Source of the DNA: a virus
IMG/VR virus record: IMGVR_UViG_3300000944_000002
Location: 1-46,963 of that record
Reading direction: 5' to 3' (one strand)
DNA length: 46,963 nucleotides
Within the stretch, counting starts at the first letter, position 1. Each line of letters starts with the position of its first letter. The position numbers and the translations under genes are program-made. This document shows positions 20,613 to 43,872 of the stretch, one piece after another. The notes under the pieces were generated by a model that saw only the letters and a program-made list of their open reading frames with translations, searched no databases and had not been told where the DNA came from.

Positions 20613-20843
20613 TCAAAAACAGTCTACGGGGGTGGGGTTGCATTCTGCCGTGCGGCGGTGTGGGTAATGTAGCCGGGCACAGTTGCATGTATTGCGGTTA
20701 GCCTCACGCCGCCGTTGTGCTTCAATGCTGTATACCTTTGTGCTTTTACATGCGCGGCACCGTATCGGGTTGACATAGTGCCGCGCTGGTTTTGTTAGCC
20801 TGAAGCGCAAACGGCAACGGCTGCACCTATAGCGTTCTAACAT
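20613..20843 (-). CDS. zinc-ribbon protein (paralog of 27718..28041)
   Basis: 76 aa. Motifs RYRCSRC ... CRACKSTKVYSIEAQRRRE ... CNCARLHYPH. Confidence 0.65.
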   Translation of the reverse strand: MLERYRCSRCRLRFRLTKPARHYVNPIRCRACKSTKVYSIEAQRRREANRNTCNCARLHYPHRRTAECNPTPVDCF

Positions 20844-22737: not shown

Positions 22738-22965
22738 GCACAACAAGTGCTGTGCTGTCATTACCTTCATTTATTCTCTTTGTTAACTGGAAACACAAAC
22801 AAAACGCATTGCAGCACCAAATGTTCTCCGCTGTCATGACTTTGTGTTTCTGAATCCGCGCACAAACAACAACTGAGCACAGTGTGCAACCAATCACACT
22901 TTTTCAGCCCCGTTTGCACCGGGGGTGTTCTATCATTTCAACCATCAAAACAACAAGGTTTCACC

Positions 22966-24273
22966 ATGCGATTACGCAAAGACCCAAGTAGCTCAGCACT
23001 ACAGCGCCGCACCCCGTACAGAAAAGAACACAAACCAGAACACCGCTATTTCATCCCATTCAGCCCCCTTGCCAATGAGCCGCAAATCATCAACATCACA
23101 CGCACCGTGAAACACTTTGCCCGGCGCGGCATCGTTCCACTGAACCGCAACCCTGAAGTGCCTCATGACAATCCATACCCCTACCACTGGCAAAGCGGCT
23201 CCCCTAACGTTTGGATGATTGCAGACTTCTGGCCCACCGGACGCATTGCGCGCACACAGCGCACTGACCCAAAAGGGCACAGCATCATGCCCAACAATTT
23301 CATTAGCGCACAACACCGCATGTTGTGTCGGCCCATGCGCATGACCAAGATGCGCGCTGACTTGATTTTCAGGAACAAGCTTGGCCTACCCCATGAGTAC
23401 GAAACACAGTTCCACAACCGCCGTTCCTTGTTAGATGACAAAGACACCAGTGTGTTTACATTGGAATACGAACAAGAGGTATTGAACTTCTACCGCACCA
23501 TGAGCAAAGGCGGCTTCATTCGCTTTGAAAAGTTTAGACGCCGGAGCAAACACATTGACGGCATTGGCAGCAAGTACCAGTTCTTTGGGAACAAGATGTC
23601 ACCTGAGATGCGCGCCCTGTACGTGGGCCAAGAACTGTTTGCACGTGCGCCCAATATGAACGGCTTGGTTGTCATGGCTGACATCACACAGCGCTTCATT
23701 GATAACGGCAACCTGACGTTGATGAACTGCGATGACTTACGTGGCAACGTGCAGCCCAACAAACTGAACTTGACGGCCATCTGGTTGATTGCTGCTATGC
23801 AGTACGCCAACGCACGCATTGATGAAGTGAAAGTTGACGCGGTGCACCACATGCAAGACTTTTTCATTGAAGCCGGGGACGCCAACCGGGGTGGTGATCG
23901 TCCGTTGAAGTGGGGTGACAATTACGTGCAGCCCAAGAACATAGTGGTTGCAGCTATAGAAGTGTATGCAGCATTAACACCGCCTAAGCCGTTGCAGCAC
24001 GTGAACAGCCGAATGTCACAACAGGGGTTGACATGGTTCAAGCCACTTGAAGAGTTCAGGCTGAGCGCAACCAAGGCCATTCAGCGCGCAACGTTTGGGA
24101 AGTTCAACTATAGTCTAATGGGTAAGCACTACCACAACGCACAACGTGAGATTGCACACCATTTCATTTCATATTGTGCGTTGTGTGGCATTGACGAAAA
24201 CACCGCGCAGCGGTATTTTAAGCAAGTTCCCAACCGGGACGGCAAGCACTTGAAACCAAAGGCACCAAAATGA
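22966..24273 (+). CDS. large early ORFan (435 aa), first gene of the rightward early operon
   Basis: ATG at 22966 with an AAGG box 10 nt upstream. The track ORF begins at GTG 22882. ATGA overlap with the next gene. I recognise no motif. Confidence 0.65.
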   Translation: MRLRKDPSSSALQRRTPYRKEHKPEHRYFIPFSPLANEPQIINITRTVKHFARRGIVPLNRNPEVPHDNPYPYHWQSGSPNVWMIADFWPTGRIARTQRTDPKGHSIMPNNFISAQHRMLCRPMRMTKMRADLIFRNKLGLPHEYETQFHNRRSLLDDKDTSVFTLEYEQEVLNFYRTMSKGGFIRFEKFRRRSKHIDGIGSKYQFFGNKMSPEMRALYVGQELFARAPNMNGLVVMADITQRFIDNGNLTLMNCDDLRGNVQPNKLNLTAIWLIAAMQYANARIDEVKVDAVHHMQDFFIEAGDANRGGDRPLKWGDNYVQPKNIVVAAIEVYAALTPPKPLQHVNSRMSQQGLTWFKPLEEFRLSATKAIQRATFGKFNYSLMGKHYHNAQREIAHHFISYCALCGIDENTAQRYFKQVPNRDGKHLKPKAPK

Positions 24274-24857
24274 GCACCACACCCCGCAAAACCCGAACAC
24301 CCCGCGCACCTCAATTGACTGAGACCATGATTAACGCCTACCTTGGGCGTACCCATAAACACATTGCAGAAGTGCAGCGTATGGCCCGCCTGATGGCTAC
24401 CACGTTGCGTGACGGGTATGACTATGGGGAGACCGCAGCACTATTATCTGACAATGTACTCAAGCATGATCAAAGCAAGTTTAGTGCTGATGAGTTCATT
24501 CCGTATGTGTGGTTAACAGCCGCCTACGCTTCAGGTGATAGGCACACGTTCAATTATCCGCATGGCATGGAAAAACGCATCGACGCGGCTATAAAGCATC
24601 ACTACGAACACAACAAGCACCACCCGGAATTTTGGGGTGACCACTTGGCTGGTATGAATATGGCTTCAATGGCTGAGATGGTGTGTGATTGGGCCGCTAT
24701 GAGCACAGAACGCAACGGTGGCCAGTACGCAAGCCCGTTGCCCTTCTACCATAAGGCAGTATCTAACGGCAAAACTTCACGTGGTTGGCGCTTCACCCTG
24801 AAGCAACGTGAGCGCATTGAATGGTTGATTGTCATACTTGATGCGGCACACAACTAA
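24270..24857 (+). CDS. HD-like metal-dependent protein (DUF5662-like)
   Basis: Pattern H..I.EV ... LKHDQSKFSADEF ... IKHHYEHNKHHPEFW ... EMVCDWAAM matches the HDxSK / HH..N.HH.E.W / CDW signature I associate with DUF5662. Confidence 0.55.
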   Translation: MSTTPRKTRTPRAPQLTETMINAYLGRTHKHIAEVQRMARLMATTLRDGYDYGETAALLSDNVLKHDQSKFSADEFIPYVWLTAAYASGDRHTFNYPHGMEKRIDAAIKHHYEHNKHHPEFWGDHLAGMNMASMAEMVCDWAAMSTERNGGQYASPLPFYHKAVSNGKTSRGWRFTLKQRERIEWLIVILDAAHN

Positions 24858-25171
24858 TGGGTAAAGTTTTCAACTGGTTTGAACAACTGTACACACAGGC
24901 GGCTGACTCTTGTGAAGTACCCCATTGGAGCCTGACAACGCAATGGTGGTGCACAAGCATGGTGACCATAGTGTTGGGTGTGTTCTCACTGCTATTGGGG
25001 CTGTACTTAGTTGTGAAGCTGTGCAGGGCCGTGTACTTGGCGTTGTCTGTGCCTTGGCTTGCCACTAAGTGCAGGCGGCTCAGGCGCGAACGTGCGCGGC
25101 TTGAGCATGAGGTTGGCAACGCTAGGAAACTAAAAGCGCTTGTTGACACGCACGACCTTGGCAAAGAATAA
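24857..25171 (+). CDS. small membrane protein
   Basis: 104 aa. TAATG stop-start overlap. TM segment WWCTSMVTIVLGVFSLLLGLYLVV, then a basic helix. Confidence 0.6.
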   Translation: MGKVFNWFEQLYTQAADSCEVPHWSLTTQWWCTSMVTIVLGVFSLLLGLYLVVKLCRAVYLALSVPWLATKCRRLRRERARLEHEVGNARKLKALVDTHDLGKE

Positions 25172-25185
25172 CAGGCACAAAAAAG

Positions 25186-25214
25186 GGGTGAACCGCACCA
25201 CACAGTTCACCCCT
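25186..25214 (-). terminator. intrinsic terminator between convergent operons (best on the minus strand; may act bidirectionally)
   Basis: A 9-bp stem (ggggtgaac / gttcacccc) with an 11-nt loop. The minus strand continues with TTTTT (complement of 25181..25185). It lies 15 nt after the plus-strand stop and 97 nt after the minus-strand stop. Confidence 0.7.
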
Positions 25215-25310
25215 CATCAAGCAAGCGCCACGCGCTAAGCCACCAACATCACCCGCCGCAATGCAGCGAGCCGTGCCCATTATCACACACTTTCTCTAGT
25301 GTTGAAACCC

Positions 25311-25496
25311 CTATAATTCAACTAGCTTTTCAATAGCCTTTTGTAACGCTGTGGCACGTTCATTGGCCAACCTCACAGCCACCGCCCGGTTTGCGCGCTC
25401 ATCAGCCAAGCCTGCAATCATGGCCCGGCGCGCACGCCTGTGCAGTTCCCTCTTGTGTGACGGTGCAGTTGTGTTTTGGCTGGTGGTCTTAGTCAT
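25311..25496 (-). CDS. small basic helical protein
   Basis: 61-aa ORF, Arg/Ala-rich (HKRELHRRARRAMIAGLADERANRAVAVRLANERATALQ). Confidence 0.5.
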   Translation of the reverse strand: MTKTTSQNTTAPSHKRELHRRARRAMIAGLADERANRAVAVRLANERATALQKAIEKLVEL

Positions 25497-25567
25497 GTGG
25501 TGTTTTCCTTTTGCTTGTTATTGTTAACGGCTCCACGGTGTTCATCTTGAGGGGCCAGTTCACATTT

Positions 25568-26008
25568 TTATGCGTCTTTACCCCTAGCGTTTCCACTCAT
25601 AGCGTGTCTGATTTTACCTAACAACGTTTGAGCCGCCGTGCGGGTGTCTTCACGCCAACCAGTATCTTGTAACACGTGGCGCAATGCGCTGCGCAATGCA
25701 ATACGTTCTTCTGTAGTCATGCTGACATTGACCTCATATTCGTTTTCTATGTGGTGGCCCCCTTTGTTCTGCAATTGAGGTGTTGGGTATGTTTTGACGC
25801 CTAGCTCTTCAGTGGCTCCAACGTGCGCCGCCATGTAATTTTTGCGTAAGTCACGGAACAGTGTGTCAAGCTCATCTAATAACCCAGCAAGGCGGTCACC
25901 TTGCTCATATAGATCAAGGTGGCTTTTGAGTTCATTGAATTTATTGTTGGTCTTGATGCGTGCGGTGTCAATGTCATTGAGGCTGTTGAAGTGTTGTAAG
26001 TTTTTCAT
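25568..26008 (-). CDS. hypothetical protein
   Basis: 146-aa ORF with an AAGGA Shine-Dalgarno 9 nt upstream of the ATG at 26008. It follows a terminator and a possible promoter. Confidence 0.6.
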   Translation of the reverse strand: MKNLQHFNSLNDIDTARIKTNNKFNELKSHLDLYEQGDRLAGLLDELDTLFRDLRKNYMAAHVGATEELGVKTYPTPQLQNKGGHHIENEYEVNVSMTTEERIALRSALRHVLQDTGWREDTRTAAQTLLGKIRHAMSGNARGKDA

Positions 26009-26091
26009 GTGGTGTGTTCCTTTTGGAATGTTGTTGCTCTTATATATGTTATCGGTCTCGCAGCGTTAAACTTAAATTTTATAACGAAAAA

Positions 26092-26110
26092 AGCCCACCA
26101 AGTGTGGGCT
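26092..26110 (-). terminator. intrinsic terminator inside the leftward accessory block
   Basis: On the minus strand: agcccac-acttg-gtgggct followed by TTTTT. It lies 24 nt after the stop of 26134..26340. Confidence 0.7.
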
Positions 26111-26133
26111 TTGTGACGTGGTTAATACTGAAA

Positions 26134-26340
26134 TCAATAGTTGTTTTGTGTGAACATTTCAACCGGGTCAGGTTCATACTGCACCCACACCTGAAGTGAG
26201 CACCTATTCTTTTCGCTGTACCAAGGCTGACCCCACGGCTGCCAATTGTCTGCAATCAATTCGTCAATCTCATCCAACGTATAGTCAGGGCTTGGTACGT
26301 TTTGTATTTTGTACTTCACAACGCGTTTGTCAGGTCTCAT
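26134..26340 (-). CDS. small hypothetical protein (DUF1737-like pattern)
   Basis: 68 aa. KYKIQNV...LDEIDELIADNWQPWGQP resembles the short Y.i...l...vn.li..GW.P.G domain. Weak. Confidence 0.5.
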   Translation of the reverse strand: MRPDKRVVKYKIQNVPSPDYTLDEIDELIADNWQPWGQPWYSEKNRCSLQVWVQYEPDPVEMFTQNNY

Positions 26341-26352
26341 GGTTTGTCGTCC

Positions 26353-26619
26353 TCATTCAGATTGATTATCAGGGTGCAATCGGTGATGAATTGGAATGTG
26401 TTTCGCACCGCCATCAATTGCACCAATGAAATTGTGAGTGAATGCCTTTTGCGTCATGGTTCCCCCATTCAATAAGTGAATGGCATACGCGGCCCCTATC
26501 CCATCATCAAACTTTAAGTCATGGTGTATGGGTTGCAAGAGAACATCACCTGTTGCATCAACAACAAGTTCAGCAAGACTAACTTCACCCGCCACGTCTT
26601 CGGTCATTACATAGCTCAT
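26353..26619 (-). CDS. hypothetical protein
   Basis: 88-aa ORF, tightly packed with its neighbours. Confidence 0.5.
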   Translation of the reverse strand: MSYVMTEDVAGEVSLAELVVDATGDVLLQPIHHDLKFDDGIGAAYAIHLLNGGTMTQKAFTHNFIGAIDGGAKHIPIHHRLHPDNQSE

Positions 26620-26621
26620 GG

Positions 26622-26897
26622 TCAGCCACCCTCTTTGAGTTGAATCATAGCTGCAAGATTCAAGTTGACTGCCTGCCGTATCTGTTCAATCTGTGTGCGG
26701 TACTCGTTAAATTGTTCACGCAAATTGTCAATGGACGTTGAACACTCTTCACACTTAGCTTCAAGCTTCTTCTTGCTTATCAACAGTTGTGCGTTTTCCG
26801 TTTCAAGTTCTTCAAACGTTTTTTGTGTTTGCCTGTTATTCGTCAACATCAGTGGCGGTCTCTTGCTCAAAGAACTTGGCGTCAATCTGTTGCTCAT
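26622..26897 (-). CDS. small coiled-coil protein
   Basis: 91-aa ORF. The start is uncertain (an internal ATG at 26849 reduces the overlap with the upstream gene). Heptad-like ELETENAQLLISKKKLEAKCEE... Confidence 0.5.
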   Translation of the reverse strand: MSNRLTPSSLSKRPPLMLTNNRQTQKTFEELETENAQLLISKKKLEAKCEECSTSIDNLREQFNEYRTQIEQIRQAVNLNLAAMIQLKEGG

Positions 26898-27294
26898 CAG
26901 ACATTAAATTGTTGACCCACGTTTCAACGTCTTTTTCATCTTGGTGTGGGTGGTTTTTAAATAGCTTATACGCATGTTCAGCTAACACAAAACGAATCGG
27001 CCTGAACTCACCCACAGCGATACCCTGAACAATTTGGAAACAGTGTCGCCGGGCGTGCTTGCCTTTGTTTGCTTCTGCCACCGCTTCACGTTTGTGTTCA
27101 GCCACACTCACACCGCGTATGGTGCAAATGTACAACAGTGATTCACGGTCATATACGTCCCACTCTTTGAGTGCGCCCTTGACTTTGTTGAATTGAAACT
27201 TGTGTCTTTTGAAGGGCCGTCTTTCTGTTTCACTTCTCAAGGCGGGTTTGATCTTGTGTACCTTTTGAGGTGCGGTGCTTTGCTTGTCAGTCAT
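26836..27294 (-). CDS. hypothetical protein (152 aa)
   Basis: ATG at 27294 (MTDKQSTAPQKVHK...). I trimmed the track ORF (27387) because the extension would consume the divergent intergenic region. Confidence 0.55.
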   Translation of the reverse strand: MTDKQSTAPQKVHKIKPALRSETERRPFKRHKFQFNKVKGALKEWDVYDRESLLYICTIRGVSVAEHKREAVAEANKGKHARRHCFQIVQGIAVGEFRPIRFVLAEHAYKLFKNHPHQDEKDVETWVNNLMSDEQQIDAKFFEQETATDVDE

Positions 27295-27401
27295 GTTGGT
27301 TGCTTCTTTTTGCGGGCGCGCACTTGGCGCTTGGAATTGTAGTGTACGGCAACGGCGCGGTGTTAAACTGTGGCGCACTACTAACAAACAAAGGGCTTTT
27401 T

Positions 27402-27737
27402 GTGAAACTTAGGGCACCTGATAGTTACTACCAAGCAACCCCTGATGAAATGCGTGAAGTGGTCAACGGTTGTGGGCCAGAATCTTGGAAGTTCAAGCTT
27501 GACAAGACACTAGGGGTGAACTTGTTTGAAGCCTGTGCAATACACGATTGGCGCTATGAACTAGGTGGCAACAAACATGATCGCAAGAAGGCTGACCAAG
27601 AGTTCATTTTGAATTGCGTTGTGATTGCAATGCTGCAATCAGTGCCACACTTGTTGTGGCGTATGCCCCTGATCCTGTTGGCCTATGCGTTTGTCAGAGT
27701 GGGTGGGCGCAAAAACTTCAAGTGGGCTGACCGATGA
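27402..27737 (+). CDS. phospholipase A2-signature protein (prokaryotic/fungal sPLA2-like; alternatively DUF1353-like)
   Basis: VVNGCGPESWKFKLDKTLGVNLFEACAIHDWRYELGGNKHDRKKADQEF matches C..P[DE]...F..AC..HD..Y...D..F. A hydrophobic C-terminal segment (LLWRMPLILLAYAFV) follows. The start is uncertain: GTG 27402 has an AAGGG box 6 nt upstream, while the track ORF starts at GTG 27270 and would add a hydrophobic N-terminus. Confidence 0.5.
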   Translation: MKLRAPDSYYQATPDEMREVVNGCGPESWKFKLDKTLGVNLFEACAIHDWRYELGGNKHDRKKADQEFILNCVVIAMLQSVPHLLWRMPLILLAYAFVRVGGRKNFKWADR

Positions 27738-28041
27738 CTTGAGCGTATTTCATGCGCTCCACTTCAGTCATGGGCTTGTCAGCGTCAGGATGCTGTTCAC
27801 AGGCACGAAAGGAACCAGGGTCGTGTGGGAAGGGGTAAGCACCACAACGGCACAGCTTGTCACTACGGGCGGCCAACTCACGTTGTCTTTGTGCTTCTGT
27901 GTTCATCACGTTAGGACTACCACAGAACGGACACACCACCGTCTTTTCGTATTCATGCGCACCGGGTTGGGTGTGCACAAATCGACGCCCGCAACCTTTG
28001 CGTGGGCTTTGGCTGCAACGGTAGCGTGTCCGGGTCTTCAA
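27718..28041 (-). CDS. zinc-ribbon protein (paralog of 20613..20843)
   Basis: 107 aa. Motifs RYRCSQS..GCGRRF ... CPFCGSPNVMNTEAQRQRE ... CRCGAYPFPHDPGS..C. Confidence 0.65.
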   Translation of the reverse strand: MKTRTRYRCSQSPRKGCGRRFVHTQPGAHEYEKTVVCPFCGSPNVMNTEAQRQRELAARSDKLCRCGAYPFPHDPGSFRACEQHPDADKPMTEVERMKYAQVIGQPT

Positions 28042-28044
28042 GGT

Positions 28045-28941
28045 CTACAGCTCAGACAAATCGACTAAACACTGTTGTAAATCATCTTCAGCCGCCATGA
28101 GGTCAGCTAACGCTTGTGCAAGCTCAGCTTCAAGCGCTTCAGTCTGGTTTTCCAGTGAGATTAAGGATGATGACAAGGTGCTCAACTGAGCCTCAAGGCC
28201 GCTGTTTTCGTTGACCAGTATGTCGTTCTCAGCTTGTATGGCTGCACAGTCAACACCGGGCGGTGGGTCAGCTACCACTTCACCAAACACGGCCAGTGGT
28301 GAGCGTGGGCCAATGGTACCGTCTGCAAAGATAGCGGTGACATAATACTCAGACCCGTCAACGTGGTTCTCAATGTCATAGGCGGGTGTGCCGTTGCTAA
28401 TGGTGAACTCATACAAGTCATTACGGTACACGTTCCAACGTACCGACCCATCAGGCGGTGTCCACGTCATGCGCAAAATATCGTCCACAGCGGTCAGGGT
28501 GACGTTTGAGGCGGCTAAATTGCCTGAAGAGGCACTGACTGCCGGGCACTCGATTGGGTCGCCTGTGGGCACCATGTTGGCCCCTGACGCGAAAGCGTTG
28601 AACACAATGGTGACTTGATCCGTGAGAACCCCACAAAATTCATCAGAATCACACGCCAACACGCTGTATTGGTGCCGGGAACCGTCAGCAACGCCGCTGT
28701 CTGTATAGCTCAGACCGTCAATGCGGTTGGCTATCTCATTCCCGTTGCGGTATACCCGGTAAGTTGCAGCGTTGGCACTGGCACTTGCAGGCCAAGAGAT
28801 AGCAACCGAAGAGCCGCTTGCAGGCACCGCGTTGATTGAGTCAGGCGGTAACGGTGGGGAACTTCCAGATTGGGCAAAAGTTAGGGTGGCAACTAGTGAT
28901 AAGGCTAGTGCGGCGGTGTGTACAAATGTCAGCTTTTTCAT
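28045..28941 (-). CDS. Sec-secreted protein with two FN3-like domains and a C-terminal coiled coil
   Basis: Signal peptide MKKLTFVHTAALALSLVATLTFA/QS. FN3-like strings are YRVYRNGNEIANRIDGLSYTDSGVADGSRHQYSVLACD and WNVYRNDLYEF...DGSEYYVTAIFADG. The C-terminus is heptad-like (LEAQLSTLSSSLISLENQTEALEAELAQALADLMAAEDDL). Confidence 0.7.
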   Translation of the reverse strand: MKKLTFVHTAALALSLVATLTFAQSGSSPPLPPDSINAVPASGSSVAISWPASASANAATYRVYRNGNEIANRIDGLSYTDSGVADGSRHQYSVLACDSDEFCGVLTDQVTIVFNAFASGANMVPTGDPIECPAVSASSGNLAASNVTLTAVDDILRMTWTPPDGSVRWNVYRNDLYEFTISNGTPAYDIENHVDGSEYYVTAIFADGTIGPRSPLAVFGEVVADPPPGVDCAAIQAENDILVNENSGLEAQLSTLSSSLISLENQTEALEAELAQALADLMAAEDDLQQCLVDLSEL

Positions 28942-28959
28942 GCTTGATTTTCCTGTTGG

Positions 28960-29382
28960 TTAAATTGTTGACACATCTGTGTCTTCAGTGGTGCCTGACA
29001 CCACGTTGCGAAGTTTATACCAATCGGGTTTTGAGTATAAGCCACCCGATAAAGCCTTATACGCGGCAAGTGACTGGTTCAGTTCTTCAGGCGTTGCATG
29101 TGCCCGGTGGTGGTCTGACCCCTTCTTGCAGTCAGGGCACGTGGTTTTGCGTGCACCTATGGGCACACAGAAGCGGCTAATGGCTTCAAACACGCGTTGG
29201 TCAATTTCATGTTGGTCAAGATTTTCCTTTGTTTGCAAAACCTTTCCGGGCGCATCAAAGATGCCATACGAATTACCGCACAAGAGACAGTGCAACTCGG
29301 CCTTTGAAAAGACCATTGTAGACACACAAGCACGTTTACAGCACGCGGCCATGTGCTTGGTCTCGCTATCATGTTCAGACAT
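28960..29382 (-). CDS. Cys/His-rich hypothetical protein (possible zinc binding)
   Basis: ATG at 29382 with a GGTGA box upstream (the track start at 29391 is GTG). Motifs AACCKRAC, HCLLCGNSYG and CPDCKKGSDHHRAH. Confidence 0.55.
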   Translation of the reverse strand: MSEHDSETKHMAACCKRACVSTMVFSKAELHCLLCGNSYGIFDAPGKVLQTKENLDQHEIDQRVFEAISRFCVPIGARKTTCPDCKKGSDHHRAHATPEELNQSLAAYKALSGGLYSKPDWYKLRNVVSGTTEDTDVSTI

Positions 29383-29653
29383 TGCTTTCACCTATATAGT
29401 TGGTAAGCTTTTTCAGTTTGAAATTCACATCATGCACGCCTGTGTGCTCAGCCACGCGGTTCAATTGAGCAAGGCAACTATCAACAGTGGGCGCACCAGT
29501 TAGGCAACAGATAACCTTGCCATTACGCCAAGCGGCTTGTACGCACAAGGTGTGCTTGATGTGTACATGGAACGACACAGCCCCACTGTGGCCAACAGCA
29601 ATACCGGGCACAGTGGGGGTGGTGTTTACACCAAAGGCAACGTCAAGGTTCAC
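29375..29653 (-). CDS. hypothetical protein
   Basis: 92-aa ORF. GTG start forming a GTGA overlap with the GH16 stop. Confidence 0.45.
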   Translation of the reverse strand: MNLDVAFGVNTTPTVPGIAVGHSGAVSFHVHIKHTLCVQAAWRNGKVICCLTGAPTVDSCLAQLNRVAEHTGVHDVNFKLKKLTNYIGESNV

Positions 29654-31032
29654 TTGAGGGCTTTGATTTCATCGCGCAAGCGTTTGACTTCATTTTCAAG
29701 TGTGGTGATTTTATCAACGCTGTTGACGTAATCCCAAAGCATGTCAACGATGCCACCCCATGCGGTTTGAACGTTTTCCTTGTTCATCACCAACTCGGGT
29801 GAGTCAAGCACGGGTTGTGTCTTTTTACCCGTCAGGTAATGCCGCATGATTTCACGCTTGTGTTCTTCATTGTGGCGTATGAACCAGCCGTGTTTCATGA
29901 GGTTTTCAGCCATGCGTGCATGGTGCTTTGCAGACTCCTTGAGATTTGAACCAGCTTCAGGTTCGTTAGCAATCAAAGCTTCAGCACGGTCACGCACATC
30001 TTGAGGCACGGGTGAGCTATCCGCTTTACCAGCCTGTGTGGGCCTTTGTGTTGCGTTCTCAATGAAGTCGCTAACGTTACCCGCCGCTTGTGCTTTTTCG
30101 CGTTCACCAGGTGCAGCAAACGCAACATCACTGCCAACTTCTAATGTTTGTACAGGTGTGCTTGTTTCATCACGTGGCATCTCATCATTGTATGACGGTA
30201 TGACTTCACCTTCAATGACGTTGCATGACTCAGGCGGTACACCTTCATTCATGAACAGCCAATCATCTGAAATTATTTCAACATGATGGATTTCATAGTT
30301 GACCCCATTGACGTAATCCTTTGGGTTAGGCTTTGCAGGCCACCCGCCACCAATTGCAAGATTCATCAGAAAGTGAAAGTGGTTGTGCATGTCAGCCGGT
30401 GTGTTCCGGTGATCAGTTATAGCCCCATTGCACTTGAACGTCATAGTGCTTGGTGACCAAAACAATTCAAAGGTCATAAGCTTTGACAGTTCATCCACTG
30501 TGACGCGTTTGATACCCTTGCCTAGTTCCTTTTTGGAACTGACCATTGTGTTCTGCTGTGACTCTTTGAAACCGTTGTAATGGTGCAGGCTGTTGTATAT
30601 GTTTCCGTCAGCAATAAATTCCATGATGTCAACTTCGGGCAACATGGGTATGCCTTTCGGCCACTGTGAATGTTCGCTTAACAGCCACAACGCTGGCCAC
30701 ACACCCTTGACATTTGGAAGACGTACAACGCATTTCACATACCCATACTTGAATGCAAGTTTGCGGTGTGTTGTAACTAACCCGGACGTGTAAGGCTGGC
30801 CGTAACGGTTAACAAGCTTTTGGTCAGCGGTGCGGCCAACTATGATGCCGCCGTTGGGTTTGTCCTTAATGGGTAAGAACGTTTTGCGCCACGCGCTTGG
30901 GTCTTCAACCATATCCATGTACATCTGTTCTTCTTCATTGATTATGGTTTTTCGGTCCCATATGAACCTATGGTTGAATGTATCGGTTGCCATTGGATTG
31001 GCAACACTTGGCAATATAATTTTTGTGCTCAT
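29650..31032 (-). CDS. glycoside hydrolase family 16 (laminarinase/beta-glucanase-like) with ~190-aa C-terminal extension
   Basis: WPALWLL followed by the catalytic E-V-D-I-M-E at codons 133-138 (nt 30619..30636), i.e. the GH16 ExDxxE motif. No signal peptide. The C-terminus ends in the coiled coil KITTLENEVKRLRDEIKALK. Confidence 0.75.
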   Translation of the reverse strand: MSTKIILPSVANPMATDTFNHRFIWDRKTIINEEEQMYMDMVEDPSAWRKTFLPIKDKPNGGIIVGRTADQKLVNRYGQPYTSGLVTTHRKLAFKYGYVKCVVRLPNVKGVWPALWLLSEHSQWPKGIPMLPEVDIMEFIADGNIYNSLHHYNGFKESQQNTMVSSKKELGKGIKRVTVDELSKLMTFELFWSPSTMTFKCNGAITDHRNTPADMHNHFHFLMNLAIGGGWPAKPNPKDYVNGVNYEIHHVEIISDDWLFMNEGVPPESCNVIEGEVIPSYNDEMPRDETSTPVQTLEVGSDVAFAAPGEREKAQAAGNVSDFIENATQRPTQAGKADSSPVPQDVRDRAEALIANEPEAGSNLKESAKHHARMAENLMKHGWFIRHNEEHKREIMRHYLTGKKTQPVLDSPELVMNKENVQTAWGGIVDMLWDYVNSVDKITTLENEVKRLRDEIKALK

Positions 31033-31493
31033 GTTTCCGGGCCTTCCCTTTTCAGTTTAATGGTTTCATAATAATTCAACACCTGTGCGTATGTGTTGCA
31101 CGTGTTGACTACTTTGTTGAGTTCAAGCACAACGCCTTTTGTGAACTGGAACTTGTACTCACCTTTGAACGGGTGTGCCGTTGTCATCACGCTTTCAGCC
31201 ATGAAGCAATACATGCAACCAATATACCAGCCACCAAAGCGGTACTTGTTATCACCAATTGACCGCTTGGCCTCTTGTATGAAAGATTGTGCAAATACGT
31301 CACGCTCTTTTGATGTCATCGCAACCAGTTTGTCAAGCCACACCTTTGTTGCTTCAATTGCTGACTTTTCAATGTCTGACATAAGAACTGAAAAACCCGC
31401 GCTTTTGGCGCGGGCAAATATGTCAGCCTCATTGAACTCACCGGGCACCGCTGTATCAGCGGCACCCGTCATTATTGTTGAGTCATCTGTCAT
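31029..31493 (-). CDS. hypothetical protein
   Basis: 154-aa ORF with ATGA overlaps at both ends. Confidence 0.6.
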   Translation of the reverse strand: MTDDSTIMTGAADTAVPGEFNEADIFARAKSAGFSVLMSDIEKSAIEATKVWLDKLVAMTSKERDVFAQSFIQEAKRSIGDNKYRFGGWYIGCMYCFMAESVMTTAHPFKGEYKFQFTKGVVLELNKVVNTCNTYAQVLNYYETIKLKREGPET

Positions 31494-32119
31494 TTTTTCT
31501 TTTTACCTTTGCCTTTGTCTTTGGCCTTGGCTTTGTCTTTGCCTTTGTCTTTTTTCTTAGACTTGCCGCCGCCATAGTCATCATACAACTCATTGGCTTT
31601 TTCACGACTAATGCCGCCGCTACCGCCAAGACTCAAACGGTCACCATCTTCAATTTTTAGAAGTGATTCAAGCCCGATGCCAACGCCCCGGTTGCCCGCG
31701 TTGTCGTATGTGTAGATACTCACAACCGCTTGGAACACGGCACCGGTATATAAGAACTTATTGGAACCAAACACACCAGGCTTGCGTTTCTTTTTGCCAG
31801 TGTCGTCAAGACAATCAGGCAAGTATCCACTTTTCAAATTTGCATACGTTGCACCCTTGAATATTTTGGTGTCAGGCTTGTCTTTTTTGTAGCTGTCATC
31901 ACCATCATGCAAGGGTGATGCGTGCTTCTTACTGAACTTCTTGACACCAAACTCATCCTTTAGTGCCTTGTTCACAGCTTTTTCAAGATCACTTAAGTCA
32001 ACGTTTTTGTCAAAGATAGCTTTGACCGCGTACTTGGTATGATCTTCATTATCGTTGTCTTTGTCTTCAACGTACCCAACCGTGAAAGGTGGAGTTACGA
32101 TTTGTTTGTCTTCTGCCAT
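31490..32119 (-). CDS. ssDNA-binding protein-like (DUF2815-like) with poly-lysine C-terminal tail
   Basis: 209-aa ORF directly downstream of the DUF2800-like nuclease, which is the conserved gene pair. It has a beta-rich OB-like core and a tail GGGKSKKKDKGKDKAKAKDKGKGKKKK. Confidence 0.6.
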   Translation of the reverse strand: MAEDKQIVTPPFTVGYVEDKDNDNEDHTKYAVKAIFDKNVDLSDLEKAVNKALKDEFGVKKFSKKHASPLHDGDDSYKKDKPDTKIFKGATYANLKSGYLPDCLDDTGKKKRKPGVFGSNKFLYTGAVFQAVVSIYTYDNAGNRGVGIGLESLLKIEDGDRLSLGGSGGISREKANELYDDYGGGKSKKKDKGKDKAKAKDKGKGKKKK

Positions 32120-33330
32120 TTGTCGAATTTCTCATTGGTGGTTGATGTGGTGGATTGCCTTGGGTCGGTCTTAGGTACCAACGTTGGCTTGCCCTTGTTT
32201 GGCTTCACAATCTGTGAAAGTTTATCTGAACCCAATGCGGCTGACAATTCAGTCAGTGTGCTTGGGCTGTAAGTCATTGAAGCGTTGAATTGGTCCTTGG
32301 TGATTTTCCCCTTTTTATGCCATTTGATTATTTGTTCAGTTGCGTTGCCAGTTAGTACACGCCTTCCCCTTCCCTCAACAACTTTGAAAAGCGATTTGCT
32401 TGGGTTCTTCTGTTGACGTAACGCAACCATTTTTTCAAGTTCTGATAAGTAGGAACGTATGCCTTGCGCGTCAATCAAAAGTTCTTCAAGGTCTTTGCCT
32501 TTTAATGTTGGGTAACCAGCACCCATACCAAGTTCACAGTCATCCTTGTATTGATCAATCACTTTTGCAGCAGGCTTGTGCCATTGTGGGCACACGCTTT
32601 TTGCAATGCAGAACTGGCACGTTTTGTCACTACGGTTCAAGTTCACCCTGTACGGTGGCTTTTGAGTGGTCTTGGTTACTTCCAAAAGGTCATAGCAATT
32701 GCCAATTCCAACTTCTAGTTGTTTGACTAGTTCAAAGAACTCTTTGCGTTTGTAACTGATGAACTGTACAGGTTCAACTTGTGTGCATCTTGGTTGTATG
32801 ATGCCCACGGTGAACTTCTTGACCTTCTTTTGTTGCTTGACGGGTAATCCTTTAAACCGGCCCCAAGTGTAGCTAATACCTTGCCAGTTGTTTTTAACAT
32901 GCACAGGCACACCCACACCATTTTTGTAATCTACGGTGATAAGTTCCTTGCCGTTAAACAGCGTGAAGTCAACCTGACCCCTAAACAAATACCTTGGGAA
33001 TATTTTGACATCAGCTTCACTGATGTACTGGCCGCCTTTCTTCTTAATCAATGCCTTAATTGTTTCATAGGCAAAGTACACCGCGTTCAGAGTGCGCCCG
33101 GTGTCAGCTTTGACTACCTTCAACGCGCGCTTAGGCGGTTTTTCTTTTTTGATCAAGCTTTCAAGAACTGAATGACCGTCAGTACCAAGGTCAGCATGTT
33201 CACTTGGTGCTTCTGCTAACTCTTTAAGTTCTTCACGGTAATAGTATGCAAGCGCTGACCAACCGGGACAAGCAAGCGAACGCGCCGCACTAGACGCGCT
33301 CGCTAAATATAGGGCATGACCTTGGGCCAT
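32095..33330 (-). CDS. PD-(D/E)XK / Cas4-like exonuclease (DUF2800-like)
   Basis: N-terminal GHALYLASASSAARSLACPGW pattern, and a C-terminal Cys cluster (CQFCIAKSVCPQW) as in Cas4/AddB-type Fe-S nucleases. Synteny with the SSB-like gene. Confidence 0.7.
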   Translation of the reverse strand: MAQGHALYLASASSAARSLACPGWSALAYYYREELKELAEAPSEHADLGTDGHSVLESLIKKEKPPKRALKVVKADTGRTLNAVYFAYETIKALIKKKGGQYISEADVKIFPRYLFRGQVDFTLFNGKELITVDYKNGVGVPVHVKNNWQGISYTWGRFKGLPVKQQKKVKKFTVGIIQPRCTQVEPVQFISYKRKEFFELVKQLEVGIGNCYDLLEVTKTTQKPPYRVNLNRSDKTCQFCIAKSVCPQWHKPAAKVIDQYKDDCELGMGAGYPTLKGKDLEELLIDAQGIRSYLSELEKMVALRQQKNPSKSLFKVVEGRGRRVLTGNATEQIIKWHKKGKITKDQFNASMTYSPSTLTELSAALGSDKLSQIVKPNKGKPTLVPKTDPRQSTTSTTNEKFDKWQKTNKS

Positions 33331-33333
33331 TGC

Positions 33334-33939
33334 CTATTTGTTTTTCTTTTTGGATTTGGCTTTTTTCTTGCTGGCCGTTTTCTTGCTGGCAGCTTTTTTG
33401 CTGGCCGTTTTCTTTGATGCAGTTTTCTTGCTGGCTTTGTCCTTCTTGCCCTTCTTATCCTTCTTGCCCTTCTTATCCTTTTTGCCCTTCTTATCTTTCT
33501 TGCCAGCGGCGTCCGTCCATGCGCCTGAATCATCACCTGCATTGCCAGCGGGTTGGAACTCTTCAAGCCCTGCAAAAATTTCGTTGACTTGCACCAAGTG
33601 CTTTGGGTCAAGCCCGTTCTTGCCGGTAATGCCCGTTGCACCAAAGTGATTCAGCACAGTCTTCTTTGCATCGGCACCATGCTTATCAGCATAAGCGCGT
33701 GCAAGACGTTGTGCACGGCGTTGGAGTGTTGCGGTTGACTCTTCACCGCCTTCACCGTCATCAGATTGCTTGCCCCCCTTTTTGGTTTTTGGTGGCTGAT
33801 GTGCTTCAGCGGTGACGCCTGCGGGCAACTCTTTGGCGGTCAGTTTATTTTTCTCAGCGTACTTCAAAAGTTTTTCAGACTCGTCTTTGTCTAATCCGTG
33901 AAAACCTATAGTGATTGAACCCATGTTATTTGTACTCAT
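33334..33939 (-). CDS. hypothetical protein with (KKDKKG)n/(ASKKT)n lysine-rich C-terminal tail; first gene of the leftward replication operon
   Basis: ATG at 33939 or 33924 (the track start at 33984 is less likely). The tail reads GKKDKKGKKDKKGKKDKKGKKDKASKKTASKKTASKKAASKKTASKKKAKSKKKNK, encoded by 15-18-bp DNA repeats at 33334..33520. Confidence 0.65.
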   Translation of the reverse strand: MSTNNMGSITIGFHGLDKDESEKLLKYAEKNKLTAKELPAGVTAEAHQPPKTKKGGKQSDDGEGGEESTATLQRRAQRLARAYADKHGADAKKTVLNHFGATGITGKNGLDPKHLVQVNEIFAGLEEFQPAGNAGDDSGAWTDAAGKKDKKGKKDKKGKKDKKGKKDKASKKTASKKTASKKAASKKTASKKKAKSKKKNK

Positions 33940-34023
33940 TTTGTGATTGGTGGCCAAACAGGATACAGCCAACGCGCCGCGCACGTCAATTGACTATTGA
34001 CATGGCCAACTAAGTCACACAAA

Positions 34024-34890
34024 ATGGCCCACCACCACAGGCAACCACCACGATATGCAATGCCAAAACAAGCACACCACTTGCACAAAACCCTTCAATG
34101 GCCGCTATTCAAAACCGGTGGTGAAGACCGGAAAGCCCCGTCAGTACGCAAGGGGTCAAGCTGGCAAGACAGGCAGAACCATCACCCGCTAACTGATAAA
34201 CTTCTCAAAGGCGCACGCAACGCCAAGTGGGGGCTGGCCTCACCCATACCTGAAGGTGTCATCGTCATAGACATTGATGAGCACAAAGCGCTGAAACGTT
34301 TATGTGATGCAATCGGCTTCAATAAGCTTTTGCAAACAACTCTTGCGGTGAAGACTGGTAACGGTTACCACCTGTACTATAAACTTCCCAAAAAGTTTGA
34401 AGTGCGTCAACTCAAAAAGAAAGTCAAGGCGTTCAGGAATATTGATTTGCGCACTCATGGTATGTACATGGTTGTCCCGCCTACGGTACATCACACAGGC
34501 GTTTCTTATGAACAGATTGACAACCCACACGACACACCGCAACCAATGCCCAAAGCTTTGCGCAAGTACATCAAGGCGGCTGTCAAAGCGTTAGGTGAAA
34601 AACGTGGCGGTGCATTGACATCAAGTGACCTTGATGCAATTGCCAATGAGTCAGTTGAACCGTTCTTATCTTTTGAAGACTTTCAAACGTTACTTGATAG
34701 TTTGAACCCTGAAGACTTTACAAACATGGAAGATGAATTTGTGCCGTTGTTGTTGTCGTGCCATTACACAATGCGTGGAAGTAAAAAGGCGCGTGAAATG
34801 TTTATTGAATGGGCACGCATAGACGTTGCCTATAACACCAACAAACATGTGCGGGTGAATCGCATTATGTGGAACACTGCCAAACTGTGA
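34024..34890 (+). CDS. archaeo-eukaryotic-type primase-polymerase (Prim-Pol) with the first half of a PriCT-2-like domain
   Basis: Motifs VIVIDIDEH (DxD), GNGYHLYYK (sGxH) and DLRTHGMYMVVPPTVH. C-terminus FIEWARIDVAYNTNKHVRVNRIMWNTAKL. The start is uncertain (TTG 33997, ATG 34024 or ATG 34060). Confidence 0.75.
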   Translation: MAHHHRQPPRYAMPKQAHHLHKTLQWPLFKTGGEDRKAPSVRKGSSWQDRQNHHPLTDKLLKGARNAKWGLASPIPEGVIVIDIDEHKALKRLCDAIGFNKLLQTTLAVKTGNGYHLYYKLPKKFEVRQLKKKVKAFRNIDLRTHGMYMVVPPTVHHTGVSYEQIDNPHDTPQPMPKALRKYIKAAVKALGEKRGGALTSSDLDAIANESVEPFLSFEDFQTLLDSLNPEDFTNMEDEFVPLLLSCHYTMRGSKKAREMFIEWARIDVAYNTNKHVRVNRIMWNTAKL

Positions 34891-39293: not shown

Positions 39294-40756
39294 AGGCAAC
39301 ACTTGATGACAAACAAGCCTTTTGTTTTGAGTTCATCAAGTACGTCACACACTTTGCGCTGTTCTTGGGTGCTGGTGCAGGCAAAACCCGGCTGATGATT
39401 GCCCACATGTTTTGGGTCAAGATATACGTGAATCCAAAATGCAAGTTTCTTATTGTCACACCCAAGGCCAACGCAATCGACACTTGGCCAACACAACTGA
39501 AACAAATGGCACGGGAACACGGTGTCAAGTTGAACATGTATGTTGAGCATAAAGAATACACGCAACAAATCATCAAGCCTAATGTCAATTGCAAGTACAG
39601 TGCTGACTTCATAGTTGTGTCATACGAAACACTGAAGCGGTTGGGCTGGCATTTAAACAACAGCTATTTTGATTATATGGTTGTTGATGAAAGTCACAGA
39701 ATCAAATCTTGGCGGTCAGGTGCACTGTCAGTTGTTGGTGTCATGGCTGAAACATGTTCAAGGGTTTACTTACTTAGTGGCCTTCCCGCACCCAAAGACA
39801 TTGGTGACCTTTACCCTCAGACATTTGTGCTTGATGGTGGTGAACGTCTTGGTGGTAACCTGTCAGCATTCAGGTCAAAACACATGCAACAATCAGAACG
39901 CAATGAACATGTATGGCGGCCAAAAGGTTGGCCAAACATTAAGAAAATGGAAAAGACCCGCAAGGGTGTATTGAAAAAGATACGTGACATTTGCATCACG
40001 CTTGAAACTGAAGAGTTTGTACCTGATGTGACAAAGGCTAATTACCACACCATTGACTTTCAACTGAAGCCAAAAGAACTGAAGAGGTACAAGCGATTTG
40101 CTAAGAAGCATATCCTTGCTATTGCTGGCACCAAGTTCAAAGCCAAGTCAGGCCCAGTGCTTCAGAACAAATTGTTGCAGTACATTTCAGGGAACGTATA
40201 CCTTGACCCTGACCCTGACGTAAAGCAACGCGGCCCAAAGAAGTACAAGCGCACAACTAATCAAAGAATGAAAGCGCTTGATAAGCACTTGGAAAAGACG
40301 TACAAGCCCGGTGACAAGCTCATCATCTCATGGGCCTACCGTCACCAAGTTGATGACATCTTGGCTGTGCTACGCAAGCACGTAAAGCACAACAAAATCT
40401 TTGTGAAGAACTCAACCAACAGTACAGTGAACTTGGTACGCGACTGGAACAACGGACGCAAAGATGTCATTGTCAGTTTTGCGTCGAGTATTGCAGAAGG
40501 GTTAAACCTGCAAGAGCACGGCGGCTCAATTATCTTCTATTCACTCACATACAATTACAACCATTTTTACCAATTGGTCAGGCGCATCAAGCGCCGGGGT
40601 AACCCCAATGATGAGTGTGATGTTTATGTCATCAATTGTGTGGGCACTGTTGACATTGAAGTTAGCAAGAACATCATTCAAAAAGAAGAGTTTGGCGGTA
40701 AGCTCATGACAACATCACAAATCATCACCGCCACCCTCAACAGCATTGACACTTGA
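39272..40756 (+). CDS. SNF2/DEAD-like helicase
   Basis: Walker A GAGAGKT, DExH box VVDESHRIKS and C-terminal helicase motif SIAEGLNLQ. The start is non-ATG (GTG 39272 or TTG 39290). Confidence 0.8.
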   Translation: MEKKKDLKATLDDKQAFCFEFIKYVTHFALFLGAGAGKTRLMIAHMFWVKIYVNPKCKFLIVTPKANAIDTWPTQLKQMAREHGVKLNMYVEHKEYTQQIIKPNVNCKYSADFIVVSYETLKRLGWHLNNSYFDYMVVDESHRIKSWRSGALSVVGVMAETCSRVYLLSGLPAPKDIGDLYPQTFVLDGGERLGGNLSAFRSKHMQQSERNEHVWRPKGWPNIKKMEKTRKGVLKKIRDICITLETEEFVPDVTKANYHTIDFQLKPKELKRYKRFAKKHILAIAGTKFKAKSGPVLQNKLLQYISGNVYLDPDPDVKQRGPKKYKRTTNQRMKALDKHLEKTYKPGDKLIISWAYRHQVDDILAVLRKHVKHNKIFVKNSTNSTVNLVRDWNNGRKDVIVSFASSIAEGLNLQEHGGSIIFYSLTYNYNHFYQLVRRIKRRGNPNDECDVYVINCVGTVDIEVSKNIIQKEEFGGKLMTTSQIITATLNSIDT

Positions 40757-41017
40757 CATGATTTCAAGCAATGTTGCCCGGTCAACGTTACATTGCAAGA
40801 CTGCCGTTTCATACTCAATCAGTCGTGCTACAACATCACGGTAGGTGTTGATTGGATTATTCTCAATCGGTATGGGGGCCAACAGTCCCGGCGGTATTGG
40901 CGGGGCTTGAAACACCACTTGTGTCGGCGGTGCTTGGAAAATTGAACAGCCCGTCAAAATCAATTGGCACATCAAGACAAGCGTGCTCAATGTTCTGAAG
41001 TGTTTGGAGTTTGTCAT
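40715..41017 (-). CDS. o-spanin (outer-membrane lipoprotein, Rz1-like)
   Basis: ATG at 41017 with a GGAAG box upstream. MTNSKHFRTLSTLVLMCQLILTGCS has the lipobox L-T-G-C, and the mature part is Pro-rich (FQAPPTQVVFQAPPIPPGLLAPIP). It starts inside the i-spanin gene in another frame and extends beyond it (overlapped architecture). Confidence 0.75.
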   Translation of the reverse strand: MTNSKHFRTLSTLVLMCQLILTGCSIFQAPPTQVVFQAPPIPPGLLAPIPIENNPINTYRDVVARLIEYETAVLQCNVDRATLLEIMSSVNAVEGGGDDL

Positions 41018-41252
41018 AGTAGTCTTCCCGTAGCGCGTCCCTGAAGTTTGTATTGGCTGCAACAGCGTGGTTGATCGCTTTGATGTCTTCAGCATATTTT
41101 TGCACCTGTGCGACTTCAGTGTGAAGGTTTTCATTTTGCAGCCTCAACAATTCATTGTCTGATTTGAGCCACTTGAACCCGGTGCCGATTGCGGCAACGA
41201 TAATGAGCGGCCAAAGGTGCCGCCCGGCAATTGATGCAATGGTTTGAATCAT
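40863..41252 (-). CDS. i-spanin (Rz-like)
   Basis: 129 aa. N-terminal TM segment (HLWPLIIVAAIGTGF), then coiled coil (NELLRLQNENLHTEVAQVQKYAEDIKA). Follows the holin gene. Confidence 0.75.
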   Translation of the reverse strand: MIQTIASIAGRHLWPLIIVAAIGTGFKWLKSDNELLRLQNENLHTEVAQVQKYAEDIKAINHAVAANTNFRDALREDYYDKLQTLQNIEHACLDVPIDFDGLFNFPSTADTSGVSSPANTAGTVGPHTD

Positions 41253-43120: not shown

Positions 43121-43121
43121 T

Positions 43122-43871: not shown

Positions 43872-43872
43872 A

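Follow-up and report, generated by a model that had tools for sequence, protein, structure and literature searches.

Candidate envelope- and glycan-directed accessory genes at the distal end of an early operon in a previously unsampled phage

Introduction

TtaP, a DUF1353 (PF07087) protein with demonstrated phospholipase A2 (PLA2) activity, is cell-associated, lacks a signal peptide and has many prophage homologues (PMC11525133). It is encoded in the five-gene typhoid toxin islet together with the phage-type muramidase TtsA, its sn-2 phospholipase activity is abolished by mutation of the catalytic Asp, and its authors argue that the activity must be restrained in the cell (PMC11525133). Here we analyse a phage locus that encodes a TtaP-like protein. 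The sequence is IMG/VR record IMGVR_UViG_3300000944_000002, studied over its full 46,963 nucleotides (hereafter the window). The locus is the block of genes at positions 25311-31493, in which the PLA2-like gene lies close to genes for a protein with tandem fibronectin type III (FN3) domains and a predicted export signal, and for a glycoside hydrolase of family 16 (GH16).

All three proteins have described relatives. Group XIV PLA2s (1FAZ/1LWB from Streptomyces violaceoruber; TbSP1, 4AUP, from Tuber borchii; PF09056) are secreted enzymes, and both TtaP and the window protein are distantly linked to them. GH16 beta-glucanase genes lie among the early/replication genes of Sinorhizobium phages phiM12, phiM7 and phiN3 and Rhizobium phage RHph_X2_24, as in the window. 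These rhizobiophage genes adjoin gp32/gp59 or a helicase, most of their neighbours are hypothetical proteins, and no FN3 or PLA2-like neighbour is annotated there; our search of the literature on phage GH16 and succinoglycan yielded nothing useful. Tandem FN3 modules are found in bacterial glycanases, and Ig/FN3-like domains on phage structural proteins.

We conclude, with a probability of roughly 0.6, that the three are independent accessory genes closing an early operon rather than parts of a dedicated multi-gene machine. The chemistry of their products would be aimed at the envelope or at glycans, and each product most likely works on its own; their substrates, timing and biological roles we infer. 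A first-pass annotation, made from the sequence alone, knew of no described phage system with this combination. The combination is indeed specific to one poorly sampled clade, but each component belongs to a kind of gene already annotated in phages (GH16 'beta-glucanase', DUF1353/PLA2-like phage protein, FN3 module).

A gene order kept in one clade, and separate genes outside it

The phage behind the window is myovirus-like, has a Gram-negative host and had not been sampled before. Its ends overlap exactly by 49 bp (1-49 = 46915-46963), so the contig is a circular assembly and a complete phage genome of about 46.9 kb; L001, a Logan contig of 46,834 bp, is near-identical to it. No close relative of the genome was found in INPHARED or IMG/VR, megablast of positions 25000-32000 against 50,697 phage records gave zero matches, and tblastn with the exonuclease and GH16 gave only matches of 24-27% identity. 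A scan of IMG/VR with the exonuclease alignment found relatives at 23-29% only, and scans of IMG/VR with GH16 or FN3 as single proteins found nothing. JGI metagenome scans (queries exonuclease and PolA) gave no match, nor did scans of GTDB genomes with the FN3 and PLA2 alignments. The three genes at issue, with the ratio of nonsynonymous to synonymous substitution rates (dN/dS) of each, are:

27402..27737, plus strand: PLA2-like protein of 111 amino acids (aa), DUF1353/TtaP-like, the only plus-strand gene of the block; dN/dS 0.09
28045..28941, minus strand: tandem-FN3 protein of 298 aa, assigned by AlphaFold2 (AF2) and Foldseek; dN/dS 0.19
29650..31032, minus strand: GH16 beta-glucanase of 460 aa, Pfam PF00722; dN/dS 0.07

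Two clade relatives were recovered, L009 and L091, giving three lineages with the window. L009, an 81-93%-identical relative, has core replication genes that are 89-93% identical and keeps g154, GH16, g92, Cys143, FN3, Cys107, PLA2 and g153 at 66-87% (the small genes are listed below). L091 is more distant, with identities of 60% for PolA, 45% for the exonuclease, 44% for the primase and 38% for the single-stranded DNA-binding protein (SSB). It keeps, in order, g154, GH16 (31-35%), FN3 (40%), the zinc-ribbon gene Cys107 (41%), the antisense PLA2-like gene (47%) and, weakly, g153, and a different gene replaces g92 and Cys143. The order common to the clade is g154, GH16, non-conserved middle gene(s), FN3, Zn-ribbon, antisense PLA2 and g153, and the convergent PLA2/Cys107 pair recurs on the short contigs L006/L007. 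Synteny with L009 and L091 extends over the whole replication backbone as well, so vertical inheritance would by itself account for the kept order.

Outside the clade, the picture is one of separation. In 80 IMG/VR PLA2-like loci, tblastn at E<0.01 found no homologue of GH16, FN3, Cys107 or Cys143 within 6 kb (0/80). The FN3 protein is present on three unrelated phage backbones (L092-L094), and homologues of GH16, PLA2 and the Zn-ribbon protein were not detected on the sequence recovered for these loci (8-17 kb per locus). Judged from these sequences, the GH16, FN3 and PLA2 genes travel separately outside the clade. The co-occurrence in relatives that an undescribed system would have called for thus exists as gene order in L009 and L091, but the backbone is equally syntenic and the genes part company elsewhere.

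The predicted locations of the products also differ. Against the framing of the first-pass annotation, GH16 has no export signal and the FN3 protein is predicted to be exported, which would place them in different compartments before lysis. Because of these different compartments until lysis and the separation outside the clade, we rate a coordinated system low against independent genes.

In the comparison of the window with L009, dN/dS is 0.07-0.27 for all compared block genes with estimable dS (for g153, dS could not be computed). The replication core has values of 0.04-0.06, and the block genes are thus somewhat less constrained. Purifying selection of this kind, as estimated from the aligned sequences, indicates that the block genes are real genes and not chance open reading frames (ORFs).

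The PLA2-like protein

The gene most likely starts at GTG 27402, which has an AAGGG Shine-Dalgarno sequence 6 nt upstream and gives an N-terminus that fits the family consensus; the start codon at the equivalent position is TTG in L009 and ATG in L091. This yields a protein of 111 aa in place of the 155-aa ORF from 27270 that had been proposed before. Searched alone against Pfam, the protein reaches DUF1353 at E=0.05 (13.6 vs 22.5 bits) and Phospholip_A2_4 at E=0.18, with no PF09056 match at E<=10. An exhaustive profile search recovered a family of 814 representative homologues (50%-identity clusters), mostly of 110-140 aa among the 150 listed. In an alignment of 107 sequences, H48 and D49 are invariant and G23-C24-G25, C45, Y52, A64-D65 and N71 nearly so; 41 of the 107 match DUF1353 (E<=0.01, best 1.4e-5) and 22 match Phospholip_A2_3.

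Searched against the PDB, the family profile matches the group XIV PLA2s 7ygk, 4aup and 1faz at E=1.5-2.1e-8 over the catalytic core, and the HD and D of these three structures pair with H48/D49/D65 in the alignment. The AF2 model, with a predicted local distance difference test score (pLDDT) of 88.4 and a predicted template modelling score (pTM) of 0.82, has 4aup (Tuber PLA2) as its top PDB fold (template modelling score, TM, 0.63; probability 1.0; E=0.13). Its top viral fold is a Vibrio phage 'Phospholipase A2 domain protein' (TM 0.78, E=7e-4), and parvovirus VP1 PLA2 domains come next. Family profile, catalytic residues and model together confirm, at the superfamily level, the PLA2 signature that had been recognised by eye.

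The profile match to the group XIV enzymes extends over AC..HD..Y, D..F and YY.AV..FG. In contrast to these, the window protein has no signal or pro-peptide, does not reproduce the two disulfides and shows only ~19% identity; it is phage-encoded and presumably intracellular, whereas they are secreted. Its N-terminus, MKLRAPDSYY, has no hydrophobic signal, and two of its 3 Cys (C24 and C45) are nearly invariant in the family. A C-terminal hydrophobic helix was considered as a membrane anchor and ruled out, since its counterpart in solved PLA2s is the 'YY.AV..FG' helix of the core. TtaP has 125 aa with H70/D71/D85, compared with 111 aa and H48/D49/D65 here, and TtaP, too, lacks a signal peptide and the two conserved disulfides of the secreted enzymes. 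Unlike TtaP, the window-protein family carries a conserved N-G-C-G-P loop and Cys24/Cys45, and it lies between DUF1353 and Phospholip_A2_3.

From 58 non-redundant viral loci we collected the ORFs of 95 aa or more that lie no further than two genes from a PLA2-like gene, 150 in all. They yield 16 peptidoglycan-hydrolase Pfam matches (Phage_lysozyme 4, Peptidase_M15_3 3, Amidase_2 3, Hydrolase_2 2, GH108 2, Amidase_3 1, SLT 1) and 3 LydA holins. PHROG endolysin families agree with Pfam on these neighbours, and terminase genes also recur near PLA2-like genes (IMG/VR loci L011-L090). The family is thus frequently found near phage-type muramidases, as TtaP is with TtsA, and this proximity to endolysins and holins suggests a lysis-associated role, in parallel with TtaP/TtsA in Salmonella Typhi. 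Unlike the DUF1353 prophage/TtaP setting, the window gene is antisense in an early operon and not beside the endolysin. A generic Cys-rich partner for PLA2-like genes was ruled out in the 58 loci (2/114 adjacent ORFs vs 27/760 in the background).

The window protein is probably a phospholipase that stays inside the cell and works on host membranes. It would be of the TtaP/DUF1353 type, attack host membrane phospholipids with its His-Asp/Asp set, and probably act late, aiding lysis or exit. Our promoter scan detected no promoter for the gene; lying reversed and overlapped at its 3' end, it may be expressed later or less strongly while the early operon is transcribed.

The tandem-FN3 protein, predicted to be exported

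The layout of this protein is a predicted Sec-type signal segment (1-~24), FN3-1 (37-113), a linker, FN3-2 (145-213) and a coiled-coil helix (232-297). An AF2 model, built with six homologues, shows an N-terminal hydrophobic helix, two 7-stranded sandwiches and one long C-terminal helix, with block-mean pLDDT of about 77-93 for 37-113 and 145-213. Foldseek matches it to tandem FN3 pairs (E=7e-9, probability 1.0), with 478 PDB matches at E<=1e-3, the leading tandem FN3 pairs spanning ~210 columns. The protein stays below Pfam cut-offs (PF00041, 20.4 bits vs 25; RGI_lyase, 25.0 vs 27.8) and matches PHROG 1696 (FN3 repeat region, phage tail protein) at E=4.7e-8. The N-terminus consists of MKK, a 19-residue hydrophobic core and TFA|QS, and by inspection an equivalent segment is present in 6/6 homologues. 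Cys97, Cys103, Cys132 and Cys232 are kept across the six homologues, which fits an oxidising compartment. The first-pass reading as a Sec-secreted protein with two FN3 domains and a coiled coil is supported by the model, the Foldseek matches and the conserved N-terminus.

The family is rare and comprises the window protein and five homologues among 5.8 billion clusters, on four phage backbones. Like the tandem FN3 modules of bacterial glycanases, the window protein has two sandwiches with the 'W...YRVYRN' motif, and it gives weak matches to FN3 regions of CbhB, RGI lyase and the phage tail protein of PHROG 1696. It is a stand-alone protein with a predicted Sec signal and a long coiled coil, encoded in an early operon, and in this differs from the FN3-like domains of phage structural proteins.

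The C-terminal coiled coil probably makes this presumably exported and disulfide-stabilised protein an oligomer. Such an oligomer would bind a glycan or a receptor of the envelope, either in the periplasm or at the cell surface, and might serve, for instance, in receptor masking or superinfection exclusion.

In two of the unrelated phages a conserved protein of 482-514 aa (36% identity; L092 3897-5345, L093 11550-13094) comes after the FN3 homologue, directly in L092 and one small gene later in L093. This protein, which has no Pfam match and no counterpart in the window, could serve the FN3 family as an alternative partner.

The GH16 beta-glucanase

The GH16 protein matches PF00722 at E=1.9e-9 (37.7 bits vs a cut-off of 22) and 26 GH16 chains in the PDB, mostly laminarinases, at E<=5.5e-7 (best 5wut, E=3.5e-15). 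Its E133-V-D135-I-M-E138 aligns to the catalytic EIDILE/EIDIME of solved laminarinases, and L009 and L091 keep the E133-x-D135-x-x-E138 motif and a C-terminal block invariant. Of the NCBIfam models, NF052454 (EglC/ExoK/ExsH equivalog; E=2.9e-24, 85.8 bits vs a cut-off of 700) scores best and aligns to the GH16 domain only. The catalytic domain (~18-255) is followed by an acidic/Pro-rich linker, a C-terminal module (~378-435) and a short coiled-coil tail; by inspection, the N-terminus has no signal peptide and no hydrophobic stretch. From its sequence, the protein is a putative laminarinase/EglC-like endo-beta-glucanase with intact catalytic residues. With this, profile and structure searches support all three of the folds that had been called, PLA2, FN3 and GH16. 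The intact ExDxxE and missing signal peptide of the first-pass call were likewise borne out; the coiled coil described at the end of the protein is present as a tail, but has only ~20 residues here and ranges from ~20 to >60 across the clade.

The EglC-ExoK-ExsH/laminarinase enzymes share with the window protein a GH16 domain with ExDxxE, and the closest homologues outside the clade are alphaproteobacterial, secreted RTX-type or EglC/ExsH-like exopolysaccharide (EPS) glycanases. Identity to known GH16 relatives is only 25-32%. The bacterial homologues carry an RTX or Sec export signal, which the window protein lacks, and compared with known GH16s it has ~200 extra C-terminal residues (clade-conserved module and coiled-coil tail). 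Within this extension, residues ~382-431 (29740-29890, minus strand) follow the pattern GW..HN...E..HYLTG.KTQP..DSP..V..KE...AW. The GW..HN...HYLTG block is conserved even in the 31-35%-identical L091 orthologue and matched no known family.

The enzyme would be made in the cytoplasm, set free at lysis, and cut beta-glucan EPS or capsule around neighbouring cells. It is probably a beta-glucan/EPS depolymerase released at lysis.

Operon layout

The replication module carries, on the plus strand, Prim-Pol, a 688-aa protein, PolA and an SNF2 helicase and, on the minus strand, a DUF2800 PD-(D/E)XK exonuclease and an Enc34-type SSB. From the end of the plus-strand genes at 25171 to the SSB gene we count 13 ORFs, 12 on the minus and 1 on the plus strand. 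The gene number of the first-pass annotation, its one opposite-strand gene and its two intrinsic terminators all agree with what we found. The elements that frame the block, and the lysis genes of the phage, are:

31490-32119, minus strand: Enc34-type SSB gene, Pfam E=6.8e-20
26112..26090, minus strand: internal terminator-like hairpin in the gap between g68 and g146, 9-bp stem with 5 GC pairs and a T-run
25215..25183, minus strand: strong intrinsic terminator closing the leftward operon where it converges on the plus-strand genes that end at 25171; 15-bp stem (7 GC pairs), then TTTTTGT
41691-42308, minus strand: endolysin, PHROG 465, E=2e-36
40715-41134, minus strand: Rz-like spanin, with overlapping ORF 40863-41252

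In a promoter/terminator scan, the minus-strand run is bounded only by promoter-like sites at 33989/33997 and by terminators at 26112 and 25215. A leftward early/middle operon would run from the divergent promoter region near 33990 through the exonuclease and SSB genes to the terminator at 25215..25183. As the only convincing boundaries are at 33989/33997, 26112..26090 and 25215..25183, we consider that the 6.2-kb stretch is probably the promoter-distal two-thirds of this leftward early operon. The inserted island with terminators of its own that had been proposed describes it less well.

The baseplate genes and the lysis cassette are on the minus strand at 40715-46623. The endolysin and Rz-like spanin at 40715-42308 rule out GH16 or the PLA2-like protein as the primary lysis enzyme. 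Endolysins of the PHROG 465 type also adjoin PLA2-like genes in 3 IMG/VR loci.

An 8-bp GC-rich hairpin followed by TTTTT lies at 31395-31415 (minus strand), within the g154 coding sequence and just downstream of the SSB gene. As a conserved attenuator it is doubtful, since both arms are changed in L009, giving a T.T mismatch. A 21-nt repeat (20/21 identical), at 25493-25513 and 26005-26025, spans the ribosome-binding site and start codon of g61 and g146 and reads, on the minus strand, CAAAAGGAA[A/C]ACACCACATGA; it is either a common translation-initiation leader or a small duplication. Tandem 9-18-nt repeats at 31497-31558 encode the Lys-rich tail (KGK/KDK) at the SSB C-terminus, and similar ones at 33338-33505 encode a Lys-rich (KGK/KDK) stretch inside a 216-aa ORF (33334-33984). 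Beyond the g61/g146 leader, the repeat search found only such Lys-codon repeats and short chance pairs. An Rfam scan of 24000-34500 found no RNA family, and the window has no tRNA. On the plus strand, beside a DUF5662 gene, a 463-aa protein (22882-24273) has no Pfam or PHROG match; it is clade-specific, 79% identical in L009, with a 463-aa gene at the corresponding position of L091.

The small genes of the block

The remaining ten genes of the block are all on the minus strand:

31029..31493, minus strand: g154, 154 aa, first gene past SSB, 80% identical in L009, dN/dS 0.12
29375..29653, minus strand: g92, 92 aa, 66% identical in L009
28960..29391, minus strand: Cys143, 143 aa, 8 Cys with CxxC pairs, 75% identical in L009
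27718..28041, minus strand: Cys107, 107-aa double zinc-ribbon protein, weak Zn_ribbon_8 and Lar matches
26836..27297, minus strand: g153, basic, ~153 aa, divergent to the PLA2-like gene, longest ORF to TTG 27387
26622-26897, minus strand: g91, coiled coil, in the variable distal tail
26353-26619, minus strand: g88, in the variable distal tail
26134-26340, minus strand: g68, in the variable distal tail, homologue in L009
25568-26008, minus strand: g146, in the variable distal tail
25311-25496, minus strand: g61, in the variable distal tail, homologue in L009

The zinc-ribbon protein Cys107 reaches Zn_ribbon_8 and Lar at E of about 1e-3 to 6e-3, below the cut-off. Its gene and the PLA2-like gene converge and share 20 nt at their 3' ends, and it stays beside the PLA2-like gene in L009 (87%), L006/L007 (47%) and L091 (41%). 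It has a paralogue, a 76-aa ORF at 20613-20843 (minus strand) near the start of the late/structural region, with which it shares the pattern RYRCS..C...C..C...EAQR.RE...C.C...YPH...C. The other Cys-rich protein, Cys143, is from its sequence likely a cytoplasmic zinc-binding protein; it was not detected in L091, and family searches including Pfam, PHROG, NCBIfam and PADLOC were empty.

A homologue of g154 is found at the syntenic position of L091 (phmmer E=8e-10), and g154 has no match in Pfam, PHROG, NCBIfam or PADLOC. For g92 there is no credible homologue in L091 and no Pfam, PHROG or NCBIfam family match. The basic protein g153 is 71% identical in L009 and has a weak syntenic homologue in L091 (E=8e-4, from a small database). 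In the five-gene distal tail (25311..26897), only g68 and g61 have homologues in L009, none of the genes was detected in L091, and family searches gave only coiled-coil noise. Where the window has g88, g91 and g146, the tail of L009 carries a DNA methylase (PF00145; 15042-15950) along with other small genes. Sequence comparison with L009 thus shows the operon tail to be a gene-exchange hot spot. PADLOC defence models gave no match for nine block proteins and only coiled-coil noise for g91, and a known defence system was ruled out for want of a PADLOC match.

Taken together, the proximal half (g154, GH16, FN3, Zn-ribbon, antisense PLA2-like, g153) appears clade-conserved, and the distal tail of five small genes appears to turn over quickly.

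Discussion

The first-pass annotation had offered the block as an undescribed system. It was right about all three folds, and the three genes are conserved in the clade, but the evidence argues little for their function as a unit. Several observations do weigh against reading them as separate accessory genes. The GH16/FN3/Zn-ribbon/PLA2 quartet is kept to 31-47% identity in L091, as are g154 and, marginally, g153, and the other seven small block genes are lost or unrecognisable there; this retention could reflect joint function, beyond vertical inheritance, in a comparison that covers only three clade lineages. GH16 and the FN3 protein both end in coiled coils and could in principle pair after lysis. 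The PLA2-like gene is here 13 kb from the lysis cassette, and the lysis role is extrapolated from other phages.

These points bear most on the idea that GH16, FN3 and the PLA2-like protein, perhaps with Zn-ribbon regulators, form one coordinated surface/EPS-remodelling or exit cassette, with FN3 and GH16 joined by their coiled coils. It draws on the identical gene order in three clade lineages, including L091 at 31-47%, on a degree of conservation in the block genes that matches that of some replication genes (SSB 38%, primase 44%), and on the PLA2/Zn-ribbon convergent overlap kept in three lineages. FN3 modules often go with glycanase domains, as the weak CbhB/RGI lyase FN3 matches recall, and GH16 and FN3 both end in predicted helices or coiled coils. 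We nevertheless consider such a cassette unlikely: there is no co-occurrence outside the clade, GH16 has no export signal and FN3 is predicted to be Sec-exported, the GH16 coiled-coil tail varies from ~20 to >60 residues, and the Zn-ribbon gene has a paralogue elsewhere in the genome. The conservation of g154 and g153 also means that retention is not specific to 'envelope' genes. A more particular form of this idea, an exit-and-spread module in which GH16, the FN3/coiled-coil protein, the Zn-ribbon protein and the antisense PLA2-like protein act on the host envelope, seems to us quite unlikely. Equally doubtful is its detail, in which a convergently gated phospholipase would weaken membranes late, and the glucanase and the FN3 protein would pair via their coiled coils and strip beta-glucan EPS.

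Superinfection exclusion or action against competitors would be another use for these genes, with the FN3 protein blocking incoming phage and the PLA2-like protein as an abortive or toxic effector checked by the overlapping Zn-ribbon gene. A place in the early operon and a product that is exported are in keeping with known exclusion factors such as T4 Imm/Sp. The convergent, overlapping PLA2/Zn-ribbon pair is kept in three lineages, and the TtaP authors' argument that the activity needs restraint in the cell (PMC11525133) would suit such a pair. This reading is very unlikely in our view, as PADLOC families gave no matches, Cys-rich partners are not enriched beside PLA2-like genes (2/114 vs 27/760, 58 loci), GH16 has no obvious place in it, and our analysis found no FN3 precedent among exclusion proteins. 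Little more can be said for nutrient release, in which GH16 would degrade storage or environmental beta-glucan (e.g. laminarin) to feed the infected cell and the other genes would be unrelated morons. The closest solved GH16 relatives are laminarinases, and GH16 genes occur in early regions of other phages. But before lysis an enzyme that stays in the cytoplasm for lack of an export signal has no access to external glucan, its nearest homologues outside the clade are secreted alphaproteobacterial EPS glycanases, and the window holds no transporter or sugar-catabolism partner; we accordingly think this reading improbable too.

Separate accessory genes at the end of the early operon thus remain our preferred reading, and the main value of the analysis is one of correction: the motif calls were right, and the simplest account of the 'undescribed system' is a series of accessory genes in an early operon. 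The FN3/coiled-coil protein, as a member of a rare family of early proteins with predicted export, is a noteworthy by-product. The PLA2-like family bridges DUF1353/TtaP and the group XIV PLA2s, and it brings forward the idea that TtaP-like phospholipases may give lipid-directed help in lysis or release. The typhoid-toxin islet agrees with this idea, as it encodes both TtaP and the phage-derived muramidase TtsA. If an exit-and-spread module were to prove true, it would give TtaP/DUF1353 phospholipases a defined role, as the lipid-directed arm of phage lysis.

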